Part shown: one piece after another, positions 1,940-20,366 of the stretch
Layout of the letters: each line of letters opens with the position of its first letter
Numbering within the stretch: the stretch's first letter is position 1
Assembly (NCBI GenBank): GCA_036386195.1
Contig: DASVIY010000306.1
Span: 1-28,086 of the forward strand
Source: Acidimicrobiia bacterium
Lineage (GTDB): Bacteria > Actinomycetota > Acidimicrobiia > IMCC26256 > JBBRZM01
Reading direction: 5' to 3'
Length of the DNA: 28,086 nt
Program-made: the position numbers and the translations under genes
Notes under the pieces: model-generated
Seen by the model: the letters and a program-made list of their open reading frames with translations, nothing else
What the model was told of the DNA's origin: nothing
Database searches by the model: none

Positions 1940-2430
1940 CACGCGACCCTTCCACCCGACACGGTGCGGGCCACACGCGTGCCCGCCTTGTATTCGTCGA
2001 TCACCGTTGCCGCGGCGTCGGGCGTGACCGGACCGTGATAGTCGTAGTTGACCTGCAGCACCGGCGCGAGATCGCACGCGGCGAGGCACTCGACCTCCTC
2101 CACGAACACGTCGTCGTCGCCGGCGTATCGCGCGCGCAGTGCAGCAAGCAGCTCCGGACCTTGATTGACGAGGCACGAGACGTTGGTGCACACGGAGACC
2201 ACGAGCCGGCCGACGGGCTCGCGCTTGTACATCGTGTAGAAGCTGCACGTGCCCAGCACTTGCGCGGGCTCGATGTGCAGCAATGCGGCGACCTCTTCCA
2301 TCGCGTCGCGCGAGACCCACCCGTCCTGATCCTGCGCGAGATGCAGGAGCGGGAGCACCGCCGACTTCGCGTGCGGGTAGCGGGCGATGATGGCGCGCGC
2401 CTTGATCACGTTGGCGTCGGTAAACGGCAT
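1939..2430 (-). CDS. nuoE: NADH-quinone oxidoreductase subunit E (2Fe-2S)
   Basis: SAVLPLLHLAQDQDGWV, SFYTMY, VCTNVSC...ECLAACDLAP; position in nuo operon. Confidence 0.95.
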   Translation of the reverse strand: MPFTDANVIKARAIIARYPHAKSAVLPLLHLAQDQDGWVSRDAMEEVAALLHIEPAQVLGTCSFYTMYKREPVGRLVVSVCTNVSCLVNQGPELLAALRARYAGDDDVFVEEVECLAACDLAPVLQVNYDYHGPVTPDAAATVIDEYKAGTRVARTVSGGRVA

Positions 2431-2432
2431 GG

Positions 2433-3734
2433 CTAGCGGTCGACCTCCCCCATGATCGGGTCGATGCTCGACACGATCGCGACCGCGTCGGCCACCATGC
2501 TCCCGGGCACCATCGCCCCCATCGTCTGCAGGTTGTAGAACGACGGACCCCTGATGTGCAGCCGGACCGGCTTGCCGGTGCCGTCGGACACGAGATAGCA
2601 GCCGATCTCACCACGCGGCGACTCGACCGCGACATAGGTCTCGCCCGGCGGCACCCGGAAGCCTTCGGTGAACAGCTTGAAGTGATGAATGAGCGCCTCC
2701 ATCGACTCGTCGATGCGGGCCCGCGGCGGCGGCGTGATCTTGCGGTCCTGCACCCGGAAGTCGCCGGCCGGCATCCGCTCGACGCACTGCTTGACGATCT
2801 TGATCGACTCGAGGATCTCGTAGAGCCGGATGCGGTACCGGTCGTAGGTGTCGCCGTTCTCTGTGTAGACGACGTCGAAGTCGACTTCGTCGTACGCGAG
2901 GTAGGGGTTGGCCTTGCGCAGGTCCCACGGAAAGCCGGTCGAGCGCAGGATCGGCCCGCTCGCGCCGAGCGCTAGGGCCTGGTCGGTGGTGATCGTGCCG
3001 ACGCCCACCGTGCGTTCCATCCAGATCGGGTTCTCGGTGAGCAGCTGGTCGTACTCGTTGACGCCCTGCTCGACGATGTCACAAACGTCGAGCACGTCGT
3101 CGGCCCAGTCGTCGGGCAGGTCGACCGCGACACCGCCGGGGCGGATGTAGTTGTTGTTCATCCGCAGGCCGGTGACCTTCTCGATGAAGCGCAGCACCTC
3201 TTCGCGCTCGCGCCAGCCGTAGAGCATCATCGAGATCGCGCCGATGTCCATGCCGTTCGTCGCCTGGAACAACAGGTGCGACGCCACGCGGTTGATCTCG
3301 CACATGAGCATGCGGATCCACACCGCGCGCGGTGGTACCTCGACGTCGAGCAGGCGCTCCACCGCCATCGAGTAGACGAGCTCGTTGGACAGCGGGGACG
3401 CGTAGTCCATGCGGGTGACGTTGGTGCCGCCCTGGACGTACGTCAGCTCCTCACCGGTCTTCTCCATGCCGGTGTGGAGGTAACCGACGATGGGCTTGGC
3501 GCGCACGACGGTCTCACCGTCGAGCTCCATCATGATGCGCAGCACGCCGTGTGTGGACGGGTGCTGCGGCCCCATGTTGATGATCATCGTCTCGCCTTCG
3601 CCCTCGACCTCGGGCCAGGGGCCGGCCGTGACAACGAGCTCGTGGTGCGTGGGCCGTAGCTCCTGCGCGCCCTCGTCGGTCTGGCGCGCGAGCCGCTCCT
3701 CTTCGTGCTGCGCGCCGTTCTGCACGTCGCTCAT
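2433..3734 (-). CDS. nuoD: NADH-quinone oxidoreductase subunit D
   Basis: [34 protein letters not shown]-terminal [10 protein letters not shown]. Confidence 0.97.
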
Positions 3735-4297
3735 CGCGGTCTCGGGTCCTCTTTGAAGGTGACGGGCACGCGCGACGCGGCGTCGTCCTTCCGCAACGGG
3801 TGGCCTGCCCAGTCGTCGGGCATCAGGATGCGCACGAGGTCGGGGTGGTCGTCGAACTCGATGCCGAAGAGGTCGTACACCTCGCGCTCGGGGAAATCCA
3901 TGCCGGGGTACACGGGTGTGAGGCTCGGCACGCGCGGGTCGCCCTCGGGCACTTGGCAGATCGCACGCACGCGACGGTTACGCGGGTGTGAGAGGAAGTT
4001 GGCCACCACTTCGAACCGTTCAGTCGTGACCCCGCCGATCGCGGCGCGCGACGCGTCGACGAGATGGTCGACTGCGGTCACGTCGACGCATTGCGTGAAA
4101 CGCTGGTCGTCGCGCAACCACGCGGCCAGGTCGCGCCACGTGCTCCGCTCGACGTACACCACCGGCTGGCCGTGCGACTCGTGGAAGACGCTGCCCTCGA
4201 AGCGGGCGAGCACCGCGGCCGCGACCTCGTCGGGCGGGGGCGCGGCCGGCACCGGGCCGTCCTTGGGAATTTCTTCACGAGCATCGTCGTCGGGCAT
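3731..4297 (-). CDS. nuoC: NADH-quinone oxidoreductase subunit C
   Basis: [35 protein letters not shown]. Confidence 0.96.
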
Positions 4298-4327
4298 GTG
4301 ACCTGGGCTTTCGCGGCTTCGAGGCGG

Positions 4328-4885
4328 CTAGGAGGCGGACGCGGGCAGCGGCGCGGGCGCGCCGTCGACCTGGTCGATCTGGATTCCCGCGCCGCCGTGG
4401 GACGAGCCTTCGCGGCGCTTGAGGAGCTCACCGGTGCGGATCTGCTCGTGGAGCGTGAGGATGCCGTGCATGAGCGTCTCGGGGCCCGGGGGGCAGCCGG
4501 GCACGTACACGTCGACCGGCACGATCTGGTCGACGCCCTGCACGATCGCGTAGTTGTTGAACATGCCGCCGCTGCTCGCGCACACACCCATGGAGATGAC
4601 CCACTTCGGCTCGACCATCTGGTCGTAGACCTGGCGGAGCACCGGTGCCATCTTCTGGCTCACGCGTCCGGCCACGATCATCAGGTCGGCCTGGCGGGGG
4701 CTGGCACGAAAGACCTCCATGCCGTATCGAGCGAGGTCGTAGTGCGCGGCACCGGTGGCCATCATCTCGAGCGCGCAGCACGCGAGGCCGAACGTCGCGG
4801 GCCACACGGAGTTGCGTCGCGCCCAACGCACCAGGTCTTCGAGCCGCCCGGTGAGGAAGTTGTTGGAGACTTGGTCGAGGCCCAT
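4328..4885 (-). CDS. nuoB: NADH-quinone oxidoreductase subunit B
   Basis: [45 protein letters not shown]. Confidence 0.97.
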
Positions 4886-5367
4886 CAGGCCGCCTCGCCC
4901 TCACCGGCGCCGCCGACGCCCAAGGTGTCGGCGGGGTCGAGCCCATCTCGGCCCGGCGCTCCCGAGGCGCGCAACATGTCGTGTCCGGCCCGTTCGCTGA
5001 TCGCCTTGACGGATCCCCAATCGAGCGCGCCGGTGGAGAGGAGGTACGCGAACGGCACCAGGAGCACGAGCAGGAAGACACCCATGGAGATCAGGCCGTA
5101 CAGCGCGAGGTCACGAAAGACGATCGTGAACGGGTACAGAAAGATGATCTCGACGTCGAGCACGATGAACGCCATCGCGACCAGGTAGAACTTCACCGGA
5201 AAGCGTTCCGCCGGCTCCGACTCGGGCACGATGCCGCACTCGTAGGGAGCCTGCTTCGCCGACGTCGGCCGGCGCGGCCCGCCGAGCAGTGTCGACGCGG
5301 CGAACGACACCGCGATGAACGTGACGACCAAGGCGATCATCGTGAGGATCGGCAGGTAGTCGCTCAC
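4885..5367 (-). CDS. nuoA: NADH-quinone oxidoreductase subunit A (with about 35-aa C-terminal tail)
   Basis: [27 protein letters not shown], three hydrophobic helices, GALDW; GTG start. Confidence 0.95.
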
Positions 5368-5430
5368 GTGAACGCGCTCTCCACGAACTCGCTCTCCGGG
5401 ACTCGGCCGGGCGGGTTGATTGCGTCGGCG

Positions 5431-5436
5431 AGGCTA
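5431..5436 (-). promoter_or_regulatory. Candidate -10 element (TAGCCT) of nuo operon promoter
   Basis: TAnnnT hexamer about 63 nt upstream of nuoA start, downstream of the preceding stop codon. Confidence 0.4.
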
Positions 5437-5491
5437 CCCGAGATGCCCCGTCGCCACGCAATGCTCGCGCCGCCGGGCCGTCGTGTCGCGG

Positions 5492-6739
5492 TTACGGCTC
5501 CGGGGCCGCCGCGACGAGCCGCTCGAGCACTGCGTACGCGGCTTCGGCCGGGCCGATCTCGTCGGGCCGCAGCAAGTTGGCCATGATGCGCAGCACCCAC
5601 TCCATGAGTGGCTGCGAGTGCATGCCGACGCGTGTCAGCTCCCGCATGACGGCGGGATTGCCGATCGCCTTGACGAACACGCGCGCAACCTTGAAGTAGA
5701 GGCCCCAGATCTCGTCGATCCGTTCCGGATAGCGCTGCAGCGCGAGGCCGTCGCCGGTGGCGAGCGCGGTATCGAGCGCCTCGGCCGCCAGCCGTCCGGT
5801 CTCGTAGGCGTAGCCGATGCCCTCGCCGTTGAACGGGTTGATCGATCCGCCGGCGTCGCCGACCACGAGCCACGTGGGGCCGGCCTTGGGCGTCACCGAC
5901 CCGCCGGTGGGCAGCTTGCCGCCGGTGGGGGCGCCGCACGACGTCTCGGGCGCGATGCCCCACCGCGCCGGTGCGGTCGCGATGAACGCGTCCATCAGCT
6001 GCGACGTGTTGATCGACTTCCACCCCGAGAACGTGGAGAGCAGCCCGACGCCCACGTTGACCGTGCCGTCGCCGACCGGGAACACCCACCCGTAACCGGG
6101 AAGATGCTGACCATCGCGGTCGCGCAGGTCGAGATGGCTCTCGATCCACGGCTCGTCGTGGTACGGGCTGGTGAAGTAGCCCCGGACGGCCATGCCGAGC
6201 GGGTAGTCGCGGTCGCGGGCGGTGCCCAGCGCTCGGCCGAAGCGGGAGTTCGCGCCGTCGGCGATCACGAGATACCGCGACCGCACCGTCTCGATCGTGC
6301 CCGTCTCGTTGTGACGCACGACGGCGCCGGCGACGAGGCCGCTGTCGAGAACCGGTTCGACGGCCTCGGCCGCGGGCCAGAACGTGGCGCCGGCCTTCAC
6401 GGCCTGGTCGGCCACCATCTCGTCGAGGTCGCGCCGGCGTACGACGTAGCCGTACGAGGGGAAGTCGGGATGCTCGGGCCATCGCAGCTCGAGCGTGATG
6501 CCGTGCGCGATCGAGCGGAGCCCGTCGAAACGCAGATGGTCGGCGAGTGGTTCGGCCAGGCCCATGTCGTGCAGCTGGCGCACCGCGCGGGGGGTCAACC
6601 CGTCACCACACGTCTTCTCGCGCGGAAAGCGCTTCTTCTCGACAACCAGCACCTTTCGGCCCCGTTCGGCCAGCCAGAACGCGGCTGCCGCGCCGGACGG
6701 ACCTCCGCCCACGATCACGACGTCGTAGCGCTCACTCAT
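5492..6739 (-). CDS. Geranylgeranyl reductase family FAD oxidoreductase (MenJ-like menaquinone side-chain reductase)
   Basis: MSERYDVVIVGGGPSGAAAA (GxGxxG), FPREKTCGDG, ADGANS, GYGWVFP, VGDAGGSINPFNGEGIGYA; sits directly upstream of nuoA. Confidence 0.85.
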   Translation of the reverse strand: MSERYDVVIVGGGPSGAAAAFWLAERGRKVLVVEKKRFPREKTCGDGLTPRAVRQLHDMGLAEPLADHLRFDGLRSIAHGITLELRWPEHPDFPSYGYVVRRRDLDEMVADQAVKAGATFWPAAEAVEPVLDSGLVAGAVVRHNETGTIETVRSRYLVIADGANSRFGRALGTARDRDYPLGMAVRGYFTSPYHDEPWIESHLDLRDRDGQHLPGYGWVFPVGDGTVNVGVGLLSTFSGWKSINTSQLMDAFIATAPARWGIAPETSCGAPTGGKLPTGGSVTPKAGPTWLVVGDAGGSINPFNGEGIGYAYETGRLAAEALDTALATGDGLALQRYPERIDEIWGLYFKVARVFVKAIGNPAVMRELTRVGMHSQPLMEWVLRIMANLLRPDEIGPAEAAYAVLERLVAAAPEP

Positions 6740-6882
6740 CGCGCGCGATGCTGGCACAACTCACGCGTGCGGGACGCACGCTGGGGGCCGTTTCGAGCGT
6801 CCCGCCGCGGCCCCACCGCCCGGGTCGAATTCCATAGTGCACAAGCGTTTCGAGCTGATGCGCGATATGCCGCTTGCTCATC

Positions 6883-6888
6883 TAGCGT
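6883..6888 (+). promoter_or_regulatory. Candidate -10 element (TAGCGT) for the Rieske/cytochrome b operon
   Basis: TAnnnT hexamer 72 nt upstream of ATG 6961; GGAGG RBS at 6944-6948; no clear -35. Confidence 0.3.
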
Positions 6889-6960
6889 GGTAGGAAACGG
6901 CCTGCTCCAGAGCCGGCTACGTGTGGTGAGCGCTGCGCCAAGAGGAGGACGTCGAGCTCA

Positions 6961-7476
6961 ATGTTCCACTGGCTGAAAGATGTCACCGGCTTGGCGTTCC
7001 TCCCTGCGGCGGGCCGGCTCATCATCGGCACGGTGCTGCTCATCGTCGGCGTCGGTATCGCGGTATTGCTGATGAAGCGACCGAAGCCCGACCGTCCCGC
7101 GACGTGGGCGGAGTGCATGGCCGGCGCGGTCGGTGTGTTCGGGCTCTTCACGCTCGCGTACGGCGTCATCCCGAGCGAGTGGCTCGTATTCGCGAACTCG
7201 TACCTCAACATGAGCACCGACCGGTTGGTCAAGTGGCCGCCCTGGCCCCTCACGAAGTACGTCAAGTTTCCGTTCAGCGCAGTGCGCGACATCGTCGCGG
7301 TGCTCATCTACCTGATCGCGATCGGCGCCACCTTGTGGCTGTTCAAGAAATGGCAGGAGCGTTCCACGGTCGAGCCCGCCGGCGAGACCGGCGAAACCCG
7401 TGAGGTCGAGCCGGCCGGCACCTCACGGTTCGGCCGGCCGCTGCGCCGGCTGCGGCGCACGAGAGTCGACGCGTAA
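6961..7476 (+). CDS. Hypothetical membrane protein (about 3 TM), first gene of Rieske/cyt b operon
   Basis: GGAGG RBS, hydrophobic helices, basic C-tail; 2-nt gap to ferredoxin gene. Confidence 0.8.
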   Translation: MFHWLKDVTGLAFLPAAGRLIIGTVLLIVGVGIAVLLMKRPKPDRPATWAECMAGAVGVFGLFTLAYGVIPSEWLVFANSYLNMSTDRLVKWPPWPLTKYVKFPFSAVRDIVAVLIYLIAIGATLWLFKKWQERSTVEPAGETGETREVEPAGTSRFGRPLRRLRRTRVDA

Positions 7477-7478
7477 CG

Positions 7479-7895
7479 ATGGCCCGCACCGACGCCAACC
7501 CACCCATGCCCGACTTCGTCATCGACTACGAGTTGCAAGAGGTCGACCCGAGTTACCTCACGTCGGCTGTGAAGCCCAAGCAGTTCCTGCACATCGACCA
7601 GTCCGAGTGCATCCTGTGCGAAGGCTGCGTCGACATCTGCCCGTGGAAGTGCATCCACATGGTCTCGGTGTCGGCAATCACCGAAGCCGTCAACACCGAG
7701 CAGCCCGGCGAGGACCCGACCGACCACGTGGCGTTCATCGTCGACGAAGACATCTGCACACGATGCGCTCTGTGCGTCGACCGCTGCCCCACCGGCGTCA
7801 TCGTGCTCGGCAAGCTCAACCCGACTGTCGTCGGCGAAGGTGATCCCCACACCCGCACTGCGCGCCACGGCTACGCCTACGGCGTGCGCTTCTAG
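7479..7895 (+). CDS. 2x[4Fe-4S] dicluster ferredoxin
   Basis: Two CxxCxxCxxxCP motifs: CILCEGCVDICP and CTRCALCVDRCP. Confidence 0.92.
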   Translation: MARTDANPPMPDFVIDYELQEVDPSYLTSAVKPKQFLHIDQSECILCEGCVDICPWKCIHMVSVSAITEAVNTEQPGEDPTDHVAFIVDEDICTRCALCVDRCPTGVIVLGKLNPTVVGEGDPHTRTARHGYAYGVRF

Positions 7896-7937
7896 TCCAG
7901 CTCGCACCACCGCTACGGAAAGACACGAGGAGAGTTC

Positions 7938-8723
7938 GTGGCGAACGGCAACGGAAACGGCAACGGGCACCGCATCGGCAAGGCACTCGAGACCGTCGAC
8001 ACGAAGGTCCGCGGCTCGCAGGCGTGGACCTCCATCTTCCGTCCCGGATCCGTCTACCGGCGCGGCTACACCGACAGTCCCCGCAACCGCTCCTACGTGA
8101 TCATGAACAACGTGCTGTACCACCTGCACCCGGTGAAGGTGAAACGGCACGCGGTGAAGGTGTCGTACACGCTCTGCCTCGGCGGGCTGTCGTTCTTCCT
8201 CTTCATCCTGCTCACCGTCACCGGCATCTTCCTGATGTTCTTCTACCGGCCCACCGACGCGTCGGCGTGGGACACCGTCAAGACGCTCGAGACCGCGGTC
8301 ACCTTCGGATCGTTCGTGCGCAACATGCATCGATGGGGCGCGCACCTCATGGTGCTCTCGGTGTTCCTGCACATGAGCCGCGTCTTCTACCACGGTGCCT
8401 ACAAGGCGCCGCGCGAGTTCAACTGGGTCATCGGCGTGATCCTGCTCACGCTCACGTTGCTCCTCTCGTTCACCGGCTACCTGCTGCCGTGGGACCAGCT
8501 CGCGCTGTGGGCCGTCACCGTCGGCACCAACATGATGGGCTACACACCGGTGTTCGGATCGCAGGTGAAGTACGCGCTGCTCGGTTCGAAGGAGATCAGC
8601 AACGACACGTTGCTGCGCTGGTACACCCTTCACGTGCTGCTCTTACCGTTCGTGATCGTGATCTTCATGGCTGTGCACTTCTGGCGCGTCCGCAAGGACG
8701 GCGGCCTGTCGGGCCCGCTGTAG
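7938..8723 (+). CDS. petB: Cytochrome b N-terminal half (cytochrome b6-like) of Rieske/cyt b complex
   Basis: GGAG RBS plus GTG; CLGG; His131/His145 and His232/His247 heme b ligands; TGYLLPWDQ; ends GGLSGPL like b6 GISGPL. Confidence 0.93.
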   Translation: MANGNGNGNGHRIGKALETVDTKVRGSQAWTSIFRPGSVYRRGYTDSPRNRSYVIMNNVLYHLHPVKVKRHAVKVSYTLCLGGLSFFLFILLTVTGIFLMFFYRPTDASAWDTVKTLETAVTFGSFVRNMHRWGAHLMVLSVFLHMSRVFYHGAYKAPREFNWVIGVILLTLTLLLSFTGYLLPWDQLALWAVTVGTNMMGYTPVFGSQVKYALLGSKEISNDTLLRWYTLHVLLLPFVIVIFMAVHFWRVRKDGGLSGPL

Positions 8724-8741
8724 CCGGAGGAGGAGCTCGCG

Positions 8742-9611
8742 ATGCCGGAAGTCCCCGAACACCTGTTGCGGCGCAGCAAAGAGCGCCGCAAGGCACTCGG
8801 CCTGCCCGTCGACGACGACGAAGGCGAGGCCGCGGACGCGACGGCTGCCTCTGACGCGCCGGCGGAAGGTGCGCCCGAAGCGACCGAAGCGCCGGCTGCG
8901 GCTGCAGGTGCCGCGCCCGAAGGTGGCGGCGACGGCGGTGACGCCGGTGGGGGCGATGCGGGGGGCGGCAAGATCCCGGCGCACCTGCTCGAGCGCTCGA
9001 AGCGGCGCAAGGCCCAGCTCGCCGGCGGTGGCGCGGAAGCCCCCGCTGCGGCTGCCGGTGCGACGGCCACCGCGACCGCGCCGAAGATCGCGGCACCTAC
9101 TGCGACCGGTCCGGGCGGTCACACGCAGCGGCTGCTCACCGTCGTCAAGTCGGGATCGATCCAGCAGACGCGCGCCGACGCGCAAGACAAGGTGCACACC
9201 TGGCCGCACCTGCTGGTCGTCGAGTTCGCCGCAATCCTGATCGTCAGCGCCGCGCTGGTCATCTTCTCGGCCACGGTGCGGGCGCCGCTCCTGCAGCTCG
9301 CCGACACCAACAAGACGCCCAACCCGTCCAAGGCACCGTGGTACTTCCTCGGGTTGCAAGAGCTGCTGACGATGTTCCACCCGATGGTCGCGGGCGTGAC
9401 CATCCCCGGCATGGGCCTGGTCCTGATGGTCGTGACGCCCTACGCCGACAAGAACCCGTCACACAATCCGCACGATCGCAAGTTCGCGATCTCGCTCTTT
9501 ACCATCTTCCTGATGATGTGGGCCGTGCTCGTCATCATCGGATCGTTCTTCAGAGGACCCGGATTCAACTTCGTGTTCCCCTGGACCAACGGCATCTTCT
9601 TCGAGTTGTAG
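8742..9611 (+). CDS. petD: Cytochrome b C-terminal half (subunit IV-like) with low-complexity N-terminal extension
   Basis: GGAGGAG RBS; VHTWPHLL, TPNPSKAPWYFLGLQELL, three TM helices. Confidence 0.88.
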   Translation: MPEVPEHLLRRSKERRKALGLPVDDDEGEAADATAASDAPAEGAPEATEAPAAAAGAAPEGGGDGGDAGGGDAGGGKIPAHLLERSKRRKAQLAGGGAEAPAAAAGATATATAPKIAAPTATGPGGHTQRLLTVVKSGSIQQTRADAQDKVHTWPHLLVVEFAAILIVSAALVIFSATVRAPLLQLADTNKTPNPSKAPWYFLGLQELLTMFHPMVAGVTIPGMGLVLMVVTPYADKNPSHNPHDRKFAISLFTIFLMMWAVLVIIGSFFRGPGFNFVFPWTNGIFFEL

Positions 9612-9621
9612 GAGTCACCCC

Positions 9622-10491
9622 GTGGACTCGTCAGTCATCCTCGTCATCGCCATCGCCGCGATTCTTGGGTTCGCGATCTTGTTCGTCCTCGTGACGGCGC
9701 GGCGACGCGCATCGACCGGATCGTTGAGCCGCGAGACACGCCGGCGCGACGCGAGCACCCCGCCCGACACCACTACTCCCGAAGGCACGTCTACTGATCT
9801 CGTCGACACGAGCGCCGCGGCACGCGAGCGGGCCGATGAAGCTCGCGACTCGATCAGCGGCGGCGTTCCGGTGCCGGCCGGTGGGCGCGCCATCGCCGAG
9901 CGCCAGCCCGTCGACGAGGAGGAGCTCGGCATCACCCGCCGCCAGTTCTTCAACCGCGGGATCCTGGCCGGTATCGGCGTCGGTGTGGCCGGCTTCGGCG
10001 CCGCGTCACTCGCGTTCATCTGGCCGCCCTCGGGCGTGAGCGGTTTCGGCGGCAAAGTCGACGTCGGCAACCTCAACGACATCGACGACACGATCTCGAA
10101 GAAGATCCCGTTCTACAACGCCGCCGCCAAGACCTACGTCCAGCCGTACCCGACAGCCGACGTGCCCAAGGCGAAGAAGATCACGGCGTACACGCCCGCG
10201 ATCATCAAGGGCATGCAGCAGGGCTACGTCGCGCTGTACCAGAAGTGCGTGCATCTCGGCTGCCGGGTGCCGTGGTGCGAAACGTCGCAATGGTTCGAGT
10301 GCCCCTGTCACGGCTCGAAGTACAACCGCGTCGGCGAGAAGCGCGGCGGTCCCGCGCCTCGTGGGCTCGACCATTTCGCGCTCGAGATCAGCGGCGGGTC
10401 CATGACCGTCGACACCGGCACGATCGTCACCGGGCCGCCGGTCGGCACCGACACCACCGGTCAATCCGCCGAGGGAGCGCCCTGTGTGTGA
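9622..10491 (+). CDS. petC: Rieske [2Fe-2S] subunit with N-terminal TM and internal Tat motif
   Basis: CVHLGC (209-214) and CPCHGSKY (227-234); TRRQFF; GPAPRGL; AGGAG RBS plus GTG. Confidence 0.93.
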   Translation: MDSSVILVIAIAAILGFAILFVLVTARRRASTGSLSRETRRRDASTPPDTTTPEGTSTDLVDTSAAARERADEARDSISGGVPVPAGGRAIAERQPVDEEELGITRRQFFNRGILAGIGVGVAGFGAASLAFIWPPSGVSGFGGKVDVGNLNDIDDTISKKIPFYNAAAKTYVQPYPTADVPKAKKITAYTPAIIKGMQQGYVALYQKCVHLGCRVPWCETSQWFECPCHGSKYNRVGEKRGGPAPRGLDHFALEISGGSMTVDTGTIVTGPPVGTDTTGQSAEGAPCV

Positions 10492-10548
10492 CCACGGGGT
10501 CGCGTCGCCCGTTCACACATCCGCGCGCTCGCGGTCGCAGGCGGGCCG

Positions 10549-11760
10549 ATGAACTTCCGCACCACGATCATCGCGGTCAACGGCGTCGTGTTCCTCGTGA
10601 TCGTCGCCGTGATCGTCGTCAAGGTCCTCAGCCAGCGCCGCAACCCGGAGATCAAGCCTGCGGAGAACCTCACGCCGTTCTTCGACGACGAGACCCTCGA
10701 AGGCCGGAAGCTCGAGCGGGTCCTCGGACTCTCGCTGCTCGCGGTGCTCGTCATCGCCATCGCGCTGCCGGTCTACTTCCTGCTCACACCGCGGCAGCAG
10801 GCGGAGGCGACCAAGGGCTTCGACGAGCGTTCGGTCGAGCGTGGCGCGGTGCTCTTCGCCGACCCCACCGGTAAGGCCTACGACTCGACCCGATCGCTGC
10901 AATGCGCGCGGTGTCACGGCGCCCAGGGCCAGGGCGGTACCGCGCCGTTCGTGCTCAAGCCCGAAAATGCGGCGTGTGCCGACCCGAAGAATGACCAGAA
11001 GCCCGAGTGCCTACCCGTGCAGGTGAGTTGGGCCGCGCCGGCGCTCCAGCTGGCGGGATTGCGCTACTCGCGTGATCAGCTCACGCAGATCATCACCTAC
11101 GGCCGCCCCGGCACGCCCATGCCGGCCTGGGGCGTCGAAAGCGGAAAGGGCGTCCTCGGCACGCAGGGCATCGACGATCTCGTCAACTACGTCGAGAGCC
11201 TCAAGATCTCACCGGCAAAGGCGAAGAAGCAGGCCGCCGATCTGCTGAAAGCTGATCGCGTCAACGCGGCCAAGGCGGTCACCGATGCGCAAAAGGCTCT
11301 CTCGGCCGCGCAGGCAACGGAGGCTGCGACGCCGAGCGATGCCAACAAGGCCGCGGTCCTCGCGGCACAGCAGCAACTCAACAACTCGACTGCCTGGAAC
11401 GACCAGGTGTCAACGGCTTCCGACGGCGCGCTGCTCTTTCAGCTGAACTGCGCCCGCTGCCACACGAAGGGCTGGTCGTACTACGACCCGCAGAAACCGC
11501 AGGCGGCACCATTGCCGGGACCGATGGGTGGCGGCGCGTACGGGCCCAACCTGCGCGACGGCGACGTGGTGCGCCAGTTCCCGCTGCCGGGGGGCGTTGA
11601 GTTGCAATACCAGTGGATCGCAGTGGGGATTCCGCAGTATCAGCAGTACGGCGTACGCGGGATCTCGTCCGGTCGCATGCCACACTTCTCCGACGCCCTG
11701 ACCAAGGCGCAGATCGACGCGATCATCGCCTACGAGCGCCAAGGTCTGAGCAGTCCGTGA
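10549..11760 (+). CDS. Membrane-anchored diheme cytochrome c (QcrC-like role)
   Basis: Two CARCH motifs (codons 119 and 301), candidate Met ligands PGTPMPAW and SGRMPHF, two N-terminal TM helices. Confidence 0.9.
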   Translation: MNFRTTIIAVNGVVFLVIVAVIVVKVLSQRRNPEIKPAENLTPFFDDETLEGRKLERVLGLSLLAVLVIAIALPVYFLLTPRQQAEATKGFDERSVERGAVLFADPTGKAYDSTRSLQCARCHGAQGQGGTAPFVLKPENAACADPKNDQKPECLPVQVSWAAPALQLAGLRYSRDQLTQIITYGRPGTPMPAWGVESGKGVLGTQGIDDLVNYVESLKISPAKAKKQAADLLKADRVNAAKAVTDAQKALSAAQATEAATPSDANKAAVLAAQQQLNNSTAWNDQVSTASDGALLFQLNCARCHTKGWSYYDPQKPQAAPLPGPMGGGAYGPNLRDGDVVRQFPLPGGVELQYQWIAVGIPQYQQYGVRGISSGRMPHFSDALTKAQIDAIIAYERQGLSSP

Positions 11761-11782
11761 TGCGGGAAGGAGCTCGGCACTC

Positions 11783-12619
11783 GTGAGCATGTTGCACCTC
11801 GCGGCTGAGGGCTTGACGAACAAGACCCTCTGGTACCCGACCCTCCAAGGGATCCTGGTCGTGGTTGCCGCCGTCGGTCTCTTCTGCGGATCGATCTACG
11901 TGCTGCTCGGCACCAACCTCGGCGCGCGCCTCGGGTTCCTTGTGGCATGGACGGGGCTGTTCGGTTTCCTCGTCCTGCTCAGCGGGCTGTGGATGACGAC
12001 GACCTCCCCGCTGAACACGTTCAAGGGCACCCTGCCGGCCTGGGACGTCAAACAGATCGTCAGCGTGCCCGCGAAGGCCAAGATCCCCGCGGTGCACGAC
12101 ATCGTGAAGGGGGGCACTGCGGTCGACCCGACCGAAGCAGCAAACGTGAAAGCGGCGGTCGACGCCGCGCTCGTCACCAAGGTCGCGACGCCGACCGCGC
12201 CGGTGACCCCGGACGAGAACAAGTTCGCGAAGTTCGACATCGTGACCGATTACAAGATCGTCAACACCTACGAGATCGGCGGCAGCAAGCCCAACGCGCT
12301 CCTGGGGCAGTTCACTCACAAGCCGAAATACGCCGCGGTGGAGTTCTGCGCGGTCAAAGTGCCCAACCTCCCGTTCGGTGTGAAGCCGCCACCGCCCGAA
12401 TGCGACCCGGCCAACTCGAACAAAGGCTTCATGATCCTCGAGCGCAACCTCGGCACGTTGCGCCAGCCGCCGATCTTCTCGTTCATCGCGTTCTTGTTGC
12501 TGTTCGGGCTGGGCCTGCTCGCGCTGCACTGGTGGGAGAGGGACAAGCTGGCGCTCGAGGCGGAGAAGAAGGCCGCGGCCACGCCGGCCGTCCGCGAACC
12601 CGAACCTGTGGGCAGTTGA
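11783..12619 (+). CDS. Hypothetical membrane protein (2 N-terminal TM, soluble domain with Cys pair, C-terminal TM)
   Basis: AAGGAG RBS plus GTG; hydrophobic pattern; same strand and close spacing within operon. Confidence 0.8.
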   Translation: MSMLHLAAEGLTNKTLWYPTLQGILVVVAAVGLFCGSIYVLLGTNLGARLGFLVAWTGLFGFLVLLSGLWMTTTSPLNTFKGTLPAWDVKQIVSVPAKAKIPAVHDIVKGGTAVDPTEAANVKAAVDAALVTKVATPTAPVTPDENKFAKFDIVTDYKIVNTYEIGGSKPNALLGQFTHKPKYAAVEFCAVKVPNLPFGVKPPPPECDPANSNKGFMILERNLGTLRQPPIFSFIAFLLLFGLGLLALHWWERDKLALEAEKKAAATPAVREPEPVGS

Positions 12620-12633
12620 GCCGAGGAGACGCC

Positions 12634-12855
12634 GTGTCACGCATCCGCATCGCGCTCGCCACTGTTTCGCTCGCCGTTGTCGCGCTCGTCGCGTCGGCGT
12701 CGCCGGCGGCGGCACAGCAGGTGGTCGACGCCGGGAAGGACCGCCAAGGAGGCACGGCGTTCATCCTCTTCGCCTTGATGGTGTTCATCATCGGCGGGTT
12801 GCTGTTCTTCATGGATCGCGTACGGCGCCGGCGCGGAGCGGGCGACGACGAGTAG
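12634..12855 (+). CDS. Small 73-aa protein: signal peptide, short loop, single TM, basic tail
   Basis: GAGGAG RBS 12623-12628 plus GTG; VSRIRIALATVSLAVVALVASASPAAA|QQ...AFILFALMVFIIGGLLFFM DRVRRRR; C-terminal part of ORF 11947..12855. Confidence 0.72.
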   Translation: MSRIRIALATVSLAVVALVASASPAAAQQVVDAGKDRQGGTAFILFALMVFIIGGLLFFMDRVRRRRGAGDDE

Positions 12856-12861
12856 CTGTCG

Positions 12862-14139
12862 CTACGCGAGCTCGCGCGCGGCTTCCGCGGCGAGCTCGAC
12901 GGTGTGAGCCAGGTCCGCGTCGGTGTGCGCCAGGCTCGGGAAGATCGTCTCGAAGCTGCTCGGCGCGAAGTACACGCCGCGCTCGAGCATGAGGTGGAAC
13001 CACGCGGCGTACCGCTTCGCGTCGGTGTCCTGCGCGGAGCTGTAGTCGCGAACCGGACCATCGGTGAAGAACAATCCGACGAGTGTGCGGGCGCGGGGTA
13101 CCTCCACCGCGATTCCGGCAGCGACGCACGCGTCGCGCAGCCCGTCCGCAAGCGTCGTCGCCTTGGCTTCGAGCTCGTCGTACGCGGCTTCGTCGAGCAG
13201 GTCGAGCACCGCGAGCCCGGCTGCGGTTGCCAGCGGGTTCCCCGACAACGTGCCCGCCTGGTACACGGGTCCGGCGGGCGCGAGCACGTCCATCACGTCG
13301 GCGGGACCGCCGACGGCGGCAAGCGGCAATCCACCGCCGATGACCTTGCCGAAGATCGAGAGATCGGGCGTCACGCCGTACAGACCTTGCGCGCCCGCGA
13401 GACCGACCCGAAATCCGGTGATGACTTCATCGAAGACGAGCAGGGCGCCGCGCTCGGTGCAGTGGCGGCGGATTGATTCGAGGAAGCCGTCGTCAGGTAG
13501 GACCAGACCCATGTTCGCGGCGATGGGCTCCACCAGCACCGCGGCGATGTCGTTGCCGTGGCGCGCGAACGCGTCACCGAGCGCTGCGTCGTCGTTGTAC
13601 GGCACGACGATCGTGTCGGCGACCGCGCCGTCGGTCACGCCGGCAGAGCCGGGAAGCCCGAGCGTCGCGACACCACTGCCGGCGGCGACGAGCAACGCGT
13701 CGAGATGCCCGTGATAGCAACCGGCGAACTTGACGATCTTGTCGCGGCCGGTCGCGCCCCGCGCCAGCCGCACCGCGGTCATCGCGGCTTCCGTGCCTGA
13801 CGAGACGAGCCGAAGCTTGTCGACCGATGGGACGCGCGCCGCGATCGCCTCGGCGAGCTCGACTTCGCGACGCGTCGGCGCCCCGAACGACGTGCCCTCG
13901 GCCGCGGCGCGTTGCACCGCCTCGACCACCTTCGGATGCGCGTGCCCGAGGATCGATGCGCCCCACGACTGCACGTAGTCGCAGTAGCGGTGCCCCTCGG
14001 TGTCGACGAGGTAGGCGCCCTGCGCGCGCTCGACGAAGAACGGATCGCCGCCCACAGCCCCGAACGACCGCACCGGCGAGCTCACACCACCCGGGATCCG
14101 GGCCAGCGCCCGGTCGAACAGCGACCGCTCGTTACTCAC
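12862..14139 (-). CDS. hemL: Glutamate-1-semialdehyde 2,1-aminomutase
   Basis: IPGGVSSPVRSF, SFGAPT, VSSGTEA, KFAGCYHGH, FDEVITGFR, FGKVIGGGLP, YQAGTLSGNP. Confidence 0.97.
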   Translation of the reverse strand: MSNERSLFDRALARIPGGVSSPVRSFGAVGGDPFFVERAQGAYLVDTEGHRYCDYVQSWGASILGHAHPKVVEAVQRAAAEGTSFGAPTRREVELAEAIAARVPSVDKLRLVSSGTEAAMTAVRLARGATGRDKIVKFAGCYHGHLDALLVAAGSGVATLGLPGSAGVTDGAVADTIVVPYNDDAALGDAFARHGNDIAAVLVEPIAANMGLVLPDDGFLESIRRHCTERGALLVFDEVITGFRVGLAGAQGLYGVTPDLSIFGKVIGGGLPLAAVGGPADVMDVLAPAGPVYQAGTLSGNPLATAAGLAVLDLLDEAAYDELEAKATTLADGLRDACVAAGIAVEVPRARTLVGLFFTDGPVRDYSSAQDTDAKRYAAWFHLMLERGVYFAPSSFETIFPSLAHTDADLAHTVELAAEAARELA

Positions 14140-14155
14140 CGCTCACCCGCGCTCA

Positions 14156-14202
14156 TTCTTGCGTCGAGGATCACCATGACATGTTGATTTGCGACGCAAG
14201 AA
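14156..14202. repeat. 47-nt imperfect palindrome (REP-like hairpin) between hemB and hemL
   Basis: TTCTTGCGTCG...CGACGCAAGAA perfect 11-bp arms, plus inner ATCA/TGAT and CATG/CATG. Confidence 0.75.
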
Positions 14203-14220
14203 CGGTCTCGGGAGGCGGGG

Positions 14221-15204
14221 TCACCGCTCTTGGAGACGCTCGGCGAGCTCGCGGGCGAGGTAGGTGAGCACGAAGTCGGCACCGGCGCGCTTGATCGCGG
14301 TGATGTGCTCGAGTGCGACCGCGTCGCCATCGAGCCATCCCAGTTGCGCGGCGGCTTTCAGCATCGCGTACTCACCGCTCACGTGGTACGCCGCGACCGG
14401 CACGTCGAACGCCTGCCGCACGGCCGCGATCACGTCGAGGTACGCGAGCGCGGGCTTCACCATCACCATGTCGGCGCCCTCGGCGATGTCGAGCGCGGTC
14501 TCGTCGAGTGCTTCGCGGGCGTTGGTGGGATCCATCTGGTAGCTGCGCCGGTCGCCGAACTGCGGCGCGCATTCCGCCGCGTCGCGGAATGGGCCGTAGA
14601 GGGCGGACGCGTACTTCGCCGAGTAGGCCAGGATCGCCGTGTCGGTGTGGCCGGCACTGTCGAGCGCGGCACGAATCGCGCCAACTTGCCCGTCCATCAT
14701 TCCCGACGGCGCGACCACGTCGGCCCCGGCATCGGCCTGGGTCACCGCGATCGCGGCGTACCGTTCGAGTGTTGCGTCGTTGTCGACGGCGCCACGCGAG
14801 TCGACGATGCCGCAGTGCCCGTGATCGGTGTACTCATCGAGGCAGTTGTCGGCCATGAGCACGAGTGCGTCACCGACTTCGTCACGCAAGTTGCGGAGCG
14901 CGGCCTGCACGACACCGCCGGGCGCGTCAGCACCGGAGCCGGTGGCGTCCTTGTGCCCGGGCACGCCGAAGAGGATCACCGCCGGGATACCGAGGTCGGC
15001 GAGCGTACGGACCTCCTTGCGCAGGCTCTCGTGCGTGTGCTGCACGACACCGGGCATCGATGCGACCGGCTCGGGAGCGTCGATGCTTTCCTTGACGAAC
15101 AGGGGCGCGACAAGGTCGTCGACATCGAGCCGGGATTCGGCGACGAGGCGGCGCATCGCGGATGTGCGGCGCAGGCGGCGGGGACGCTGCTCGGGGAACG
15201 GCAC
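14221..15204 (-). CDS. hemB: Porphobilinogen synthase (ALA dehydratase)
   Basis: RPRRLR, DNCLDEYTDHGHCG, APSGMMDG, AYSAKYAS, YQMDP, MVKPA, AYHVSGEYAM. Confidence 0.97.
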   Translation of the reverse strand: MPFPEQRPRRLRRTSAMRRLVAESRLDVDDLVAPLFVKESIDAPEPVASMPGVVQHTHESLRKEVRTLADLGIPAVILFGVPGHKDATGSGADAPGGVVQAALRNLRDEVGDALVLMADNCLDEYTDHGHCGIVDSRGAVDNDATLERYAAIAVTQADAGADVVAPSGMMDGQVGAIRAALDSAGHTDTAILAYSAKYASALYGPFRDAAECAPQFGDRRSYQMDPTNAREALDETALDIAEGADMVMVKPALAYLDVIAAVRQAFDVPVAAYHVSGEYAMLKAAAQLGWLDGDAVALEHITAIKRAGADFVLTYLARELAERLQER

Positions 15205-15210
15205 GTCACC

Positions 15211-15238
15211 AGGCTACCGGCGGTTCCCCGAAGGCCAA
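15211..15238 (-). promoter_or_regulatory. Candidate internal sigma70-type promoter for leaderless hemB (TTGGCC-N16-TAGCCT)
   Basis: -10 ends 6 nt before the GTG start; no SD. Confidence 0.55.
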
Positions 15239-15260
15239 GAGACGCTGCTCCTCGACCGGA

Positions 15261-16754
15261 TCACGAACCCGAGTTGTGCTCGGCTCCCGTTCCTGATTGC
15301 AGGGCATGCGCCAGCGCGGCCACGACACCGTCGATCGTGTGCGGATCGGCTTCGGCGTCGACGCGCAGTCCGCGCCCCGCCGCCGTCTTCGACGTGATCG
15401 GTCCGATCGAGATGACGAACGGCTGCGGTTGCGGCAGCGCACCGACCGCGGCACAGAAGTTCTCGACCGTCGACGACGAGGTGAACGTGATCGCATCCAC
15501 GTCGCCCCCGCGAACGCGCTCGACCATTGCGGCATCGGGCTCGACCGGCACCGTTCGGTAGACCGCGAGCACGTCGACCTCATGACCTTTGTCTTGCAGA
15601 CCGCGCGGCAGCACGTCGCGCGCGGTCTCGGCCCGCGCGACCAGCACGCGCTCACCCGGCGCACCGGGCGCGGGGAAACCTTCGAGCAGCGACTCGGCCA
15701 CGAACCGTTCGGGGACAAGATCGGCGTTGACGCCATGCACCGTCAACGCGTCGGCGCTACCGGGACCGATCGCGGCGATACGCAGTCCGGAGAGCGCCCG
15801 GACATCGAGCCCCGCCGGCGCGAGACCACGGGAGAAGAACGCTTCGACGCCGTTCGCCGAGGTGAACACGAGCCACGCGTAGCGATGCAGCGGCGGGAGC
15901 GCGAACTCGACGGGCTCGATCGCGATCGCCGGCATCTCGAGCACCTCCGCGCCGAGCGCTTCGAGCCGGCTGCGCAGCTCGCTCGCCTGCTCGCGGGCAC
16001 GCGTCACAACCACCGATCGGCCGAAGAGCGGCCGCGTCTCGAACCACGCAAGGTCGAGCGCGGCAACGTCACCGACGACAATCGCGGCGGGCGCCTGCAC
16101 GTCGGCATCAGCGATCGTCGCGAGCGTGGCGCGAACGGTTTTCTGGTCGGGGCGGGTGCCGTTTCGCACTGCCGCAACCGGTGTGCCGGCGGCGCGGCCA
16201 CCGTCGATGAGACGCTTCGCGATGTCAGCGATGCGTCCCGCGCCCATGAGGATGACGAGGGTGCCGCCGGCGCGACCGAGGGCGTCCCAATCGACGTCGG
16301 CGTGTCCCTTGCCCGGGTCCTCGTGTCCGGTCACCACGGTCACGTGCGTCGAACGGCCGCGATGCGTCACCGGGATGCCTGCGTACGCCGGCGCCGCAAT
16401 CGCGCTCGTGATCCCGGGAACGACTTCGAACGGAATGCCGGCCGCACGCAGGGCTTCGGCCTCCTCGCCACCGCGTCCGAAGACGAACGGGTCGCCGCCC
16501 TTCAGGCGCACGACAGTGCGGCCGGCGGCGCCGTGCTCGACGAGCGTGGCGTTGATCTGGTCCTGGGTCAGCTCGACCTGTCCGGGTGCCTTGCCGGCAG
16601 CGACCAACTGCGCGCCGGGCGGTGCGAGGTCGAGCAGGGCGGGCGGCGCGAGCCGGTCGTACACCACCACGTCGGCCTGTGCGAGAAGCTGCGCGCCGCG
16701 AACCGTCAGCAGGCCGGGGTCACCGGGCCCCGCACCCACGAGATAGACGGTCAT
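15261..16754 (-). CDS. cobA-hemD: Fused uroporphyrinogen-III C-methyltransferase / uroporphyrinogen-III synthase (CobA-HemD)
   Basis: VYLVGAGPGDPGLLT, VRLKGGDPFVFGRGGEE, VPGITSA; then VVVTRAREQA, FTSANGV, FTSSSTV. Confidence 0.95.
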   Translation of the reverse strand: MTVYLVGAGPGDPGLLTVRGAQLLAQADVVVYDRLAPPALLDLAPPGAQLVAAGKAPGQVELTQDQINATLVEHGAAGRTVVRLKGGDPFVFGRGGEEAEALRAAGIPFEVVPGITSAIAAPAYAGIPVTHRGRSTHVTVVTGHEDPGKGHADVDWDALGRAGGTLVILMGAGRIADIAKRLIDGGRAAGTPVAAVRNGTRPDQKTVRATLATIADADVQAPAAIVVGDVAALDLAWFETRPLFGRSVVVTRAREQASELRSRLEALGAEVLEMPAIAIEPVEFALPPLHRYAWLVFTSANGVEAFFSRGLAPAGLDVRALSGLRIAAIGPGSADALTVHGVNADLVPERFVAESLLEGFPAPGAPGERVLVARAETARDVLPRGLQDKGHEVDVLAVYRTVPVEPDAAMVERVRGGDVDAITFTSSSTVENFCAAVGALPQPQPFVISIGPITSKTAAGRGLRVDAEADPHTIDGVVAALAHALQSGTGAEHNSGS

Positions 16755-20227: not shown

Positions 20228-20286
20228 GGTGTCGCTCCTGCTGCCAGGGCCGGGCCGACCCGAGCCGATACCCAAGGATACCGAGC

Positions 20287-20304
20287 TTGTGCACGTGTTC
20301 TCAA
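20287..20304. promoter_or_regulatory. Rex operator (ROP) TTGTGCACGTGTTCTCAA
   Basis: Matches TTGTGAA-N4-TTCACAA with 2 mismatches; located 60 nt upstream of rex. Confidence 0.75.
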
Positions 20305-20366
20305 AGTCTGGGCAGGGGGCGCGCGGCTGCCGCACTGACGCACGGCGCCGTTACGCTCACCAGTCC

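Follow-up and report, generated by a model that had tools for sequence, protein, structure and literature searches.

A conserved b6-type cytochrome b operon with an adjoining ferredoxin gene in Acidimicrobiia

An operon of eight genes in a contig from an Acidimicrobiia bacterium sets a dicluster ferredoxin gene among genes for a cytochrome b6-type core, a Rieske protein, and a c-type cytochrome. This arrangement raises two questions: which kind of quinol-oxidizing complex does the operon encode, and what part does a cytoplasmic ferredoxin play beside it? The stretch analyzed here (28,086 nucleotides; hereafter, the window) is a complete contig (DASVIY010000306.1; C306 in our numbering) of a metagenome-assembled genome (MAG) of 2.0 Mb and 65% completeness (GCA_036386195.1); the named organisms closest to it are uncultured Acidimicrobiia of soil and permafrost. 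We find that the operon is a real, conserved, and unstudied variant of a known enzyme class. With high confidence, we take the encoded enzyme to be a forward Q-cycle menaquinol:cytochrome c reductase that feeds an aa3 oxidase through a diheme cytochrome c. The fuller reading is that of a b6c-type reductase of the APWY clade, serving as the sole Rieske/cytochrome b enzyme and accompanied by an accessory, dedicated ferredoxin partner; we put the chances of this reading at about even.

Role in the respiratory chain

The place of the enzyme in respiration is clearest in a complete, single-contig relative (G021). This genome encodes one Cytochrome_B protein, namely, that of the operon, and one COX1 heme-copper oxidase; neither an NrfD-type protein of alternative complex III (ACIII) nor a cytochrome bd was found in it. 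Being the only cytochrome b in a genome that lacks ACIII and bd, the operon product is best explained as the housekeeping quinol:cytochrome c reductase, and as the only route from quinol to the oxidase, it must carry forward flux from quinol to cytochrome c. A menaquinol:cytochrome c oxidoreductase is what the initial annotation of the window had proposed, and the inventory of G021 bears this out, with the operon as the only quinol-to-oxidase route of that relative.

A QcrB-type gene was found neither in the window's order (G000 and G021 included) nor in most of the class. The operon and a QcrB-type complex do occur together in several other families of the phylum: in 18 of 20 genomes of f32, 20 of 21 of f37, and 9 of 12 of f38. 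An additional, specialized role is possible in these families.

Layout of the operon

The eight open reading frames (ORFs) lie on the + strand between 6961 and 12855 and are separated by gaps of 2, 42, 18, 10, 57, 22, and 14 nt. GGAGG-like ribosome-binding sites precede six of the eight starts. Every ORF was recovered at its stated coordinates, and the initial description of closely spaced, co-oriented genes of this content stands. The features that are used below are as follows.

6758 to 6960, no strand: upstream intergenic region and presumed promoter, between the divergent geranylgeranyl reductase (MenJ-like)/nuo genes and the operon
6961 to 7476, + strand: g1, a 171-aa membrane protein of unknown family, translationally coupled to the ferredoxin gene
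7479 to 7895, + strand: ferredoxin, 138 aa, cytoplasmic, 2x[4Fe-4S], Pfam Fer4
7938 to 8723, + strand: cytochrome b6-type subunit (b6), 261 aa, Pfam Cytochrome_B, with a conserved N-terminal extension on the cytoplasmic side (n-side)
8121 to 8123, + strand: codon of His62 of b6, in the segment LYHLHPVK before helix A; invariant
8175 to 8177, + strand: codon of Cys80 of b6 (TLCLGG), the CxGG cysteine that is the heme c_n/c_i ligand in b6f and b6c complexes
8742 to 9611, + strand: subunit IV-like protein, 289 aa, three transmembrane (TM) helices, a cytoplasmic N-terminal extension of ~135 aa, Pfam Cytochrom_B_C
9129 to 9164, + strand: n-side segment RLLTVVKSGSIQ of subunit IV, residues 130 to 141, a candidate ferredoxin docking element
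9333 to 9344, + strand: Qo-site motif APWY on subunit IV, at the PEWY position; it defines the "APWY clade" (Kao & Hunte 2014)
9622 to 10491, + strand: Rieske [2Fe-2S] protein, 289 aa, boxes CVHLGC and CPCHGSKY, Pfam Rieske
10549 to 11760, + strand: diheme class I cytochrome c, 403 aa, anchored in the membrane by two TM helices at its N terminus, CxxCH motifs at positions 119 and 301
11783 to 12619, + strand: g7, a 278-aa membrane protein of unknown family
12634 to 12855, + strand: g8, 73 aa, GTG start with GAGGAG upstream, a signal-like helix plus one TM helix

The ferredoxin start lies 2 nt downstream of the g1 stop. The protein matches Fer4 with an E value of 9e-12, carries two CxxCxxCxxxCP motifs, and shows neither a TM helix nor a signal peptide by hydropathy. 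Pfam scores were 160 bits for b6 (Cytochrome_B), 34 bits for subunit IV (Cytochrom_B_C), and 37 bits for the Rieske protein. The cytochrome c subunit matched Cytochrom_C and Cytochrome_CBB3 and falls outside the definition of cytochrome f (PetA); among its orthologues, 40 are diheme and 6 are monoheme.

The Rieske protein begins with a TM helix, which is followed by an internal twin-arginine motif (TRRQFF) and then a second TM helix. Its best NCBIfam model is PetC of b6f. The RRxF motif and both cluster boxes are found in 46/46 orthologues, and box II has its Ser and Tyr in 45/46. We note that the twin-arginine motif lies ~100 residues into the Rieske proteins of Acidimicrobiia, where an additional TM helix and a polar linker precede it, and at residues 30 to 50 in those of other classes.

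The three remaining products (g1, g7, and g8) matched no Pfam or NCBIfam family. Hydropathy gives 3 to 4 TM helices for g1, three for g7, and a signal-like helix plus one TM helix for g8. Residues W49, P71, D110, and Q132 of g1 are conserved in the orthologue alignment. In g7, a TM hairpin precedes an outer alpha/beta domain of ~150 aa and a C-terminal TM helix. The AlphaFold2 model of g7 has a predicted local distance difference test score of 90.4, and a Foldseek search of the PDB with this model gave no match under an E value of 0.8. A wide VIA-align search returned only generic helical-hairpin matches (Z of ~8), and in the ESM Atlas, the protein fell in Actinomycetota clusters without annotation and nowhere else.

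Conservation across the Actinomycetota

The operon recurs far more often than chance would allow. The order of the window is represented by 41 genomes from 23 families, all of which have the ferredoxin (70 to 99% identity), and the complete gene order is kept in 27 of the 28 loci fetched for this order. The arrangement g1-ferredoxin-b6-subunit IV-Rieske-cytochrome c-g7 is likewise kept in 20/20 loci from seven families of the class and six others, with differing flanks. Of 43 named public Acidimicrobiia loci whose flanks are complete, 39 contain all of the genes from g1 to g7 and 34 show the seven genes colinear; among them is that of the cultured Salinilacustrithrix flava EGI L10123 (L098), with g1 to g7 in order. 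Iterated hidden Markov model (HMM) searches placed g1 immediately before the gene for the ferredoxin or b6 in 48 of 49 loci and g7 immediately behind that for cytochrome c in 45 of 49, with the misses at contig ends. Thus, the ferredoxin and the unknown membrane genes are kept beside petB/petD/petC-like genes across the class and beyond, and the objection that they might not be conserved there, which the initial annotation had raised against itself, falls away.

In contrast, g8 is confined to the window's order and one other family in the same 49 loci. Its HMM found a match in the corresponding place in 25 of 28 order-level loci, as well as in two loci of that other family; the three order-level loci that gave no match were two loci cut by contig ends and one (L015) that holds an extra ferredoxin copy outside an operon (see below). 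The proposal of a "chimeric" complex of up to eight subunits is upheld for its gene set, and neither "chimeric" nor "eight subunits" is retained.

Across the phylum, the ferredoxin was found in 124 of 301 sampled genomes. Counts of ferredoxin genes and of high-scoring b6 genes are equal in every family on both tallies: 3/3 in f24, 4/4 in f25, 8/8 in f26, 20/20 in f32, 17/21 in f37, 11/12 in f38, 8/10 in f39, 18/21 in f41, 16/16 in f45, and 0/1 in each of f29 and f30. Genomes with b6 only occur additionally in f75 and f63. The ferredoxin and b6 genes are always adjacent, 200 to 600 bp apart. These tallies include four unpublished genomes (G041, G088, and G159 of f32 and G127 of f65), and no sequence-level claim rests on them. 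A locus search with the ferredoxin alignment gave at least 584 matches, the best 80 of which were saturated by Acidimicrobiia. Separately, the phylum has a third b6-type lineage, in family f42: a lower-scoring b6-like gene is carried by 21 of its 22 genomes (E values of 1e-62 to 1e-66), and the ferredoxin by none of them.

Within the order, the median identity to the window proteins is 85% for b6, 79% for the ferredoxin, 64% for subunit IV, 54% for the Rieske protein, 43% for cytochrome c, 42% for g7, and 40% for g1. The ferredoxin is thus the second most conserved product of the operon, behind b6.

Identity of the cytochrome b core

The cytochrome b is split into two genes, one for b6 (Cytochrome_B) and one for the 3-TM subunit IV (Cytochrom_B_C). 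Hydropathy found three TM helices in b6, and helix B was placed from its two His ligands. The heme ligands H131/H145 and H232/H247 are invariant in 27/27 sequences, as is His62. Cys80 is likewise present in 27/27 orthologues. A paralogous operon found in relatives of the window organism, here termed type B, encodes a b6 that lacks this cysteine; a His aligned with His62 is also found in four type-B paralogues. The Qo motif APWY (KAPWYF) occurs in 45 of 47 orthologues.

Against NCBIfam, b6 scored 306.6 bits with the ExtP-type model (cutoff, 290), 212.7 bits with PRK03735 (cytochrome b6 of cyanobacterial/Bacillus type), and 117.8 bits with QcrB_actin (cutoff, 500). Its best solved relatives are the b6 subunits of b6f complexes (165 bits), compared with ~85 bits for mycobacterial QcrB. 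From its Qo motif and its ExtP-type score, the latter serving as a proxy for placement in a tree, we assign the window cytochrome b to the APWY clade. Kao & Hunte (2014; PMC4122944) include in this clade Geobacter ExtOPQ and the split cytochrome b of Ilumatobacter coccineum (Acidimicrobidae), and they state that no member is characterized and propose reverse operation for the clade. The likeness to this clade is close: a split cytochrome b, the APWY motif, ExtP as the best-scoring model, and Acidimicrobidae named in that survey. Because a split APWY cytochrome b is already catalogued for Ilumatobacter, the b6 core is not new. The survey makes no mention of ferredoxin or of g1/g7 partners, however, and its suggestion of reverse operation ill fits an organism in which the operon is the sole complex III; indeed, the forward flux expected in G021 argues against APWY complexes running in reverse.

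The name ExtP itself, which denotes a protein of Geobacter selenite/tellurite reduction, was considered for the window b6 and rejected. Subunit IV reached only 52.7 bits with the ExtQ model (cutoff, 150), and the multiheme cytochromes ExtKLMNS, the porin ExtI, and the rhodanese ExtH of the Geobacter system are not in the window; with ExtQ below its cutoff and the Ext context missing, the name is not transferable. The ExtP cutoff was also passed by 1 of 14 named control genomes. Automatic annotation may thus label the window cytochrome b "selenite/tellurite reduction ExtP," which would be misleading.

Compared with the b6c complexes of Firmicutes and heliobacteria (Bacillus QcrABC and Heliobacterium PetCBDA) and with b6f, the window shares a split b6 plus subunit IV, the CxGG cysteine, His-ligand spacings of 14 and 15 residues, WPHLLxxE in subunit IV, and b6f-like Rieske boxes. 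It differs in having neither cytochrome f nor a fusion of subunit IV with cytochrome c but a separate, N-terminally anchored diheme cytochrome c; in having APWY for PEWY/PDWY and long n-side extensions on b6 and subunit IV; and in adding the ferredoxin, g1, g7, and g8. The actinobacterial QcrCAB complexes (Mycobacterium/Corynebacterium) come from the same phylum and resemble the window in two subunits: a diheme cytochrome c that could feed an aa3 oxidase directly and a Rieske protein that has additional membrane anchoring at its N terminus and carries its twin-arginine translocation (Tat) motif internally. Nevertheless, the window proteins score far below the QcrB, QcrA, and QcrC cutoffs (118/500, 21/275, and 28/200 bits, respectively), and the window cytochrome b is split and carries the heme c_n cysteine, whereas QcrB is unsplit at ~540 aa. 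The complex is distinct from QcrCAB, as first suggested, given the QcrB score and the b6 subunits of b6f as best solved relatives. Since the window-type and QcrB-type systems coexist in some families, we regard them as paralogous.

The ferredoxin and its relatives

The ferredoxin family is recognizable by an N-terminal arm (DDYxLxxVDxxWLxxxVKPK) that is specific to it and by an insert of ~25 residues between the cluster motifs; none of the eight cluster cysteines varies. When 1.84 billion representative proteins were searched with the family profile, 16 family-like proteins were retrieved at E values of ≤1e-30. Other matches starting at profile positions 2 to 4 were mostly fragments; beyond these were polyferredoxins and the C-terminal domains of 550- to 630-aa GltD-like proteins. 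That library carries no taxonomy, and the family may extend to other phyla. Solved relatives of the ferredoxin are the FwdF/MvhB polyferredoxin modules, NuoI, and PscB.

In the 301 genomes, the sole matches outside the family at E values of ≤1e-15 were the C-terminal dicluster domains of ~625-aa proteins with Fer4_20 and Pyr_redox_2 domains. These domains belong to the type-B loci. In four such loci (L145, L146, L147, and L151), a gene for a GltD-like protein of ~625 aa (Fer4_20, Pyr_redox_2, and a C-terminal 2x[4Fe-4S] domain) lies immediately upstream of a b6-subunit IV-Rieske-cytochrome c cluster. The type-B b6 is 56% identical to the window b6, and the type-B operon further encodes a short subunit IV, a Rieske protein, and a c-type cytochrome (monoheme by Pfam in L147, where the operon spans 6217 to 10370 on the - strand). 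A weak g1-like match was also seen upstream of the type-B flavoprotein gene in L145 and L146. The ferredoxin is 35 to 46% identical to the type-B dicluster domain (E values of 5e-14 to 8e-18), which is its nearest relative outside its own family among the sampled genomes, with polyferredoxins ranking equally in wider libraries. Judging from these alignments, the ferredoxin has a common ancestor with the C-terminal dicluster domain of the GltD-like NAD(P) flavoprotein found in paralogous, anammox-type complexes.

Complexes of this type are discussed for Kuenenia (Kuste4569-4574 and Kustd1480-1485; PMC12954380), in which an n-side NAD(P) oxidoreductase subunit was modeled on 5t5i and 9bp5. The AlphaFold3 models trace a path from the n-side hemes through [4Fe-4S] clusters to FAD and place an extra inter-monomer heme b on an N-terminal His of cytochrome b (His43/His62); the Kuenenia Rieske proteins with a Tyr/Ser pair titrate above +300 mV (PMC12954380). 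Surveys from 2013 and 2017 had noted NAD(P)/Fe-S proteins beside subfamily G cytochromes b (PMC5600118; Dibrova). The window resembles these systems in its split b6-type core with an adjoining gene for an Fe-S module, in a ferredoxin profile that matches the templates of the Kuenenia subunit (5t5i FwdF and 9bov/9bp5), and in a Rieske protein with the Ser/Tyr pair (45/46 orthologues). A true paralogue of the anammox type occurs in relatives of the window organism, and the invariant His62 of the window, which aligns with the type-B His, is a candidate equivalent of the Kuenenia His. The differences are that the window has the two-cluster domain alone, with no FAD/NAD(P) domain and no multiheme cytochromes; that window-type organisms are aerobes with an aa3 oxidase; and that the window adds g1, g7, and g8 and keeps its n-side module separate and dispensable.

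A literature search found no biochemical description of such a complex, in agreement with the initial annotation, and no publication that ties a ferredoxin to an actinobacterial b6-type complex; Acidimicrobiia, Rieske proteins, and cytochrome b were not treated together in the literature searched, where the surveys of 2013 and 2017 and the APWY clade paper come closest.

Loss and duplication of the ferredoxin

Four genomes of family f75 (G203, which is complete, G242, G268, and G216; loci L148, L149, L150, and L154) have the genes g1-b6-subunit IV-Rieske-cytochrome c-g7 with no ferredoxin between g1 and b6, and no member of the ferredoxin family was found anywhere in these four genomes. Two genomes of sister genera in the same family (G229 and G320; L152 and L153) retain it. 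The ferredoxin-less b6 proteins are 79 to 83% identical to that of G229, versus 83.5% for the ferredoxin-bearing G320. For subunit IV, the corresponding identities are 50 to 56%, versus 68% in the ferredoxin-bearing control. The n-side RLLxVV segment of subunit IV, RLL(T/A)xV...IQ, is conserved in 48 ferredoxin-bearing operons (L131, V135, and I140 each at ≥95%); among the ferredoxin-less operons, it is degenerate in three and deleted in one. In type-B subunit IV, whose partner carries the fused ferredoxin domain, R(L/V)LGVVP is kept in three of the four proteins examined. This pattern of decay and retention makes the RLLxVV segment a candidate docking element for the ferredoxin.

A second ferredoxin copy lies outside the operon, beside a pirin-like gene, in G009 and four Microflora Danica MAGs (L015, L062/L157, L083, L085, and L086), and this orphan locus is syntenic among all five genomes. 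In G009 and G343, the orphan and operon copies are 99.5 to 99.8% identical over exactly the ORF (414 to 422 bp), with unrelated flanks, and orphan copies from different genomes are ~80% identical. Near-identity that is limited to the ORF within a genome, combined with ~80% identity between genomes, points to gene conversion between two old copies.

Several of these observations weigh against a ferredoxin that is dedicated to the complex. The protein is dispensable, as four f75 genomes keep the rest of the operon. The N-terminal extension, His62, and Cys80 of b6 are intact in the ferredoxin-less operons, so these features are not tied to the ferredoxin, and dependence of the b6 extension on it, which we had considered, is ruled out. 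Because the four ferredoxin-less genomes may share one loss event, the decay of the subunit IV segment may amount to a single case (n = 1). A second copy outside the operon is more in keeping with a protein that is free or can dissociate than with a fixed subunit, and in composition (small, acidic with 21 D+E versus 10 K+R, and devoid of membrane segments), the ferredoxin is like a soluble carrier. Conservation of the operon, moreover, probably reflects one ancestral event in one phylum.

Taken together, loss and duplication indicate an accessory and probably dissociable partner rather than a core subunit. The initial annotation had seen in the ferredoxin a cytoplasmic point of entry or exit for electrons in the complex. 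Homology to the n-side Fe-S domain of a paralogous complex makes this plausible, but a fixed subunit is not what we find, as the protein is lost in four genomes and present as a second copy elsewhere. A complex prediction of b6, subunit IV, and g1 with the ferredoxin as partner, run with our own alignments, scored 0.30 against a mark of 0.32, a result that we count neither for nor against binding.

Proposed mechanism and alternative explanations

Gene content, motifs, conservation, sole-complex status, homology, and the patterns of loss and duplication are the observations from which we infer the following, including the subunit status of g1, g7, and g8, the docking of the ferredoxin, and the transfer of electrons and its direction. 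Menaquinol would be oxidized at an outer Qo site to which b6, subunit IV, and a Rieske protein exported by the Tat system all contribute. From the Rieske protein, one electron would pass to the membrane-anchored diheme cytochrome c and on to the aa3 oxidase. The other would cross the membrane through hemes b_p and b_n, and probably a heme c_n on Cys80, to an inner quinone site, as in a Q cycle. The proteins g1 and g7, and in this order g8 too, would be lineage-specific membrane partners and are probably supernumerary subunits. The ferredoxin would act as an accessory cytoplasmic redox partner dedicated to the complex. It probably docks on the cytoplasmic face, with the RLLxVV segment of subunit IV as a candidate contact, and once docked might exchange electrons with the n-side hemes, forming a side port through which the cytoplasm would be linked to the low-potential chain or the quinone pool. 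Docking at subunit IV residues 130 to 141 with exchange at hemes b_n/c_n is a tentative proposal, to which we give an even chance or slightly less.

The alternative that fares best is a plain b6c-type complex III whose ferredoxin is a free soluble carrier, co-transcribed with the complex but serving other enzymes and making no contact with it. A soluble, small, and acidic protein that can be lost while the remaining operon is kept, and that has an orphan second copy in a different genomic context, is what such a carrier would look like. Yet its occurrence tracks one b6 clade in all families of the shared tallies (apart from a few b6-only genomes in f75 and f63), with the two genes always adjacent, and its gene is translationally coupled to g1. 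Moreover, its closest relative outside the family among the genomes sampled forms part of an n-side flavoprotein that belongs to a paralogous cytochrome b complex, the n-side motif of subunit IV has decayed only where the ferredoxin is absent, and a median identity of 79% is high for a general carrier. We consider a free carrier unlikely, although a credible explanation.

A bolder version of the side port is a three-way, electron-bifurcating complex III in which a Rieske protein with a b6f-like signature of the high-potential type would operate on a low-potential menaquinone pool and the low b-heme chain would reduce the [4Fe-4S] partner. The reduction step might pass through an extra inter-monomer heme b on His62, as AlphaFold3 predicts for Kuenenia. 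If this were true, aerobic soil Actinomycetota could make low-potential reductant directly from quinol oxidation; run backwards, the same path would deliver ferredoxin electrons into the quinone pool via heme c_n, which is the long-debated ferredoxin:quinone reductase (FQR) activity of b6-type complexes. We judge bifurcation to be rather improbable.

The ferredoxin, possibly with g1 and g7, might instead be an assembly or maturation factor that is absent from the mature enzyme, acting, for example, in heme c_n attachment or cofactor insertion. Heme c_n is attached from the n-side, which in chloroplasts requires factors of its own (the CCB system), Cys80 is invariant, and the operon directly follows a Ccm heme maturation cluster in one metagenomic contig. 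Ferredoxin-less operons, however, retain Cys80 and the entire CxGG context, so the ferredoxin is not needed for Cys80; the type-B paralogue has a fused ferredoxin domain and no cysteine, and neither g1 nor g7 matched the CCB1 or CCB2/4 Pfam families at E values of <0.01. An assembly role is thus improbable.

Finally, an enzyme that works mainly in reverse or in a specialized capacity outside the main respiratory chain, using high-potential electrons to reduce menaquinone or a low-potential acceptor, was proposed in its reverse form for the APWY clade (Kao & Hunte 2014) and would suit the coexistence with QcrB-type complexes in f32, f37, and f38, but it is highly improbable given that searches turned up no QcrB-type gene in the window's order or in most of the class, that the operon is the sole quinol route to the single heme-copper oxidase of G021, and that it sits between nuo and heme biosynthesis operons.

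Significance

Soil, freshwater, and the sea all harbor Acidimicrobiia and related deep-branching Actinomycetota in abundance, and the operon is the main, often only, complex III of these bacteria. A ferredoxin beside a b6-type cytochrome with the heme c_n cysteine bears on the purpose of heme c_n, on ferredoxin exchange by b6-type complexes (the cyclic-flow/FQR problem), and on whether anammox complexes really use the electron-bifurcating NAD(P)/low-potential mechanism that has been proposed for them. Cultured aerobes such as S. flava carry the operon, and Ilumatobacter has the same split APWY-type cytochrome b. With cultured carriers and with lineages that naturally lack the ferredoxin or have two copies of it, these questions can be tested in organisms that are easier to work with than anammox bacteria. 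New in this work are the agreement of ferredoxin and b6 counts by family, the respiratory inventory of a complete relative, the decay and retention of the subunit IV motif, and the gene-converted orphan copy.

Genomic neighborhood and expression

The surroundings of the operon are a respiratory and heme neighborhood. It is divergent from genes for a MenJ-like geranylgeranyl reductase and nuoB/C/D/F and convergent with a rex-hemA-hemC-cobA/hemD-hemB-hemL string (- strand, 12862 to 20335). The reductase-like gene (- strand, 5492 to 6757) encodes an FAD-dependent protein, possibly a menaquinone side chain reductase, and heads the nuo genes; its position upstream of the operon is kept in most loci of the order, at 54 to 82% identity. 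The complex I genes occupy 614 to 4885 on the - strand (nuoB, 4328 to 4885; nuoC, 3731 to 4297; nuoD, 2433 to 3734; and a NuoF-like gene, 614 to 2635). The NuoF-like ORF has a long N-terminal region, which may be a fused NuoE or the result of an over-called start. In a metagenomic contig of another family (L142), a complete Ccm (system I) cluster at 30 to 6530 directly precedes the operon, and rex follows at 11829 to 12491.

Consensus scans found no sigma-70 promoter-like site in 6758 to 6960, and terminator-like sites were no more frequent than in shuffled sequence. With the Rex operator pattern TGTGAA-N4/N6-TTCACA and up to 3 mismatches allowed, no site was found in the same region upstream of g1. 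The one good Rex-operator-like site, TGTGCACGTGTTCTCA (2 mismatches, 20288 to 20303), lies ahead of rex itself.

Expression was examined in soil RNA libraries, three of which are metatranscriptomic and one of which is labeled "METAGENOMIC RNA-Seq." RNA contigs, most of them from relatives at 90 to 95% identity, matched the ferredoxin, b6, subunit IV, and Rieske genes in their conserved blocks; being too short to span gene junctions, they bear on expression and not on co-transcription. The depth of the ferredoxin block was similar to that of the b6 blocks in three of four runs, where depths are summed over many organisms and DNA carry-over is possible. Contig coverage of this kind lends weak support to expression of the operon. 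In one run, near-identical contigs tile 7562 to 7911.

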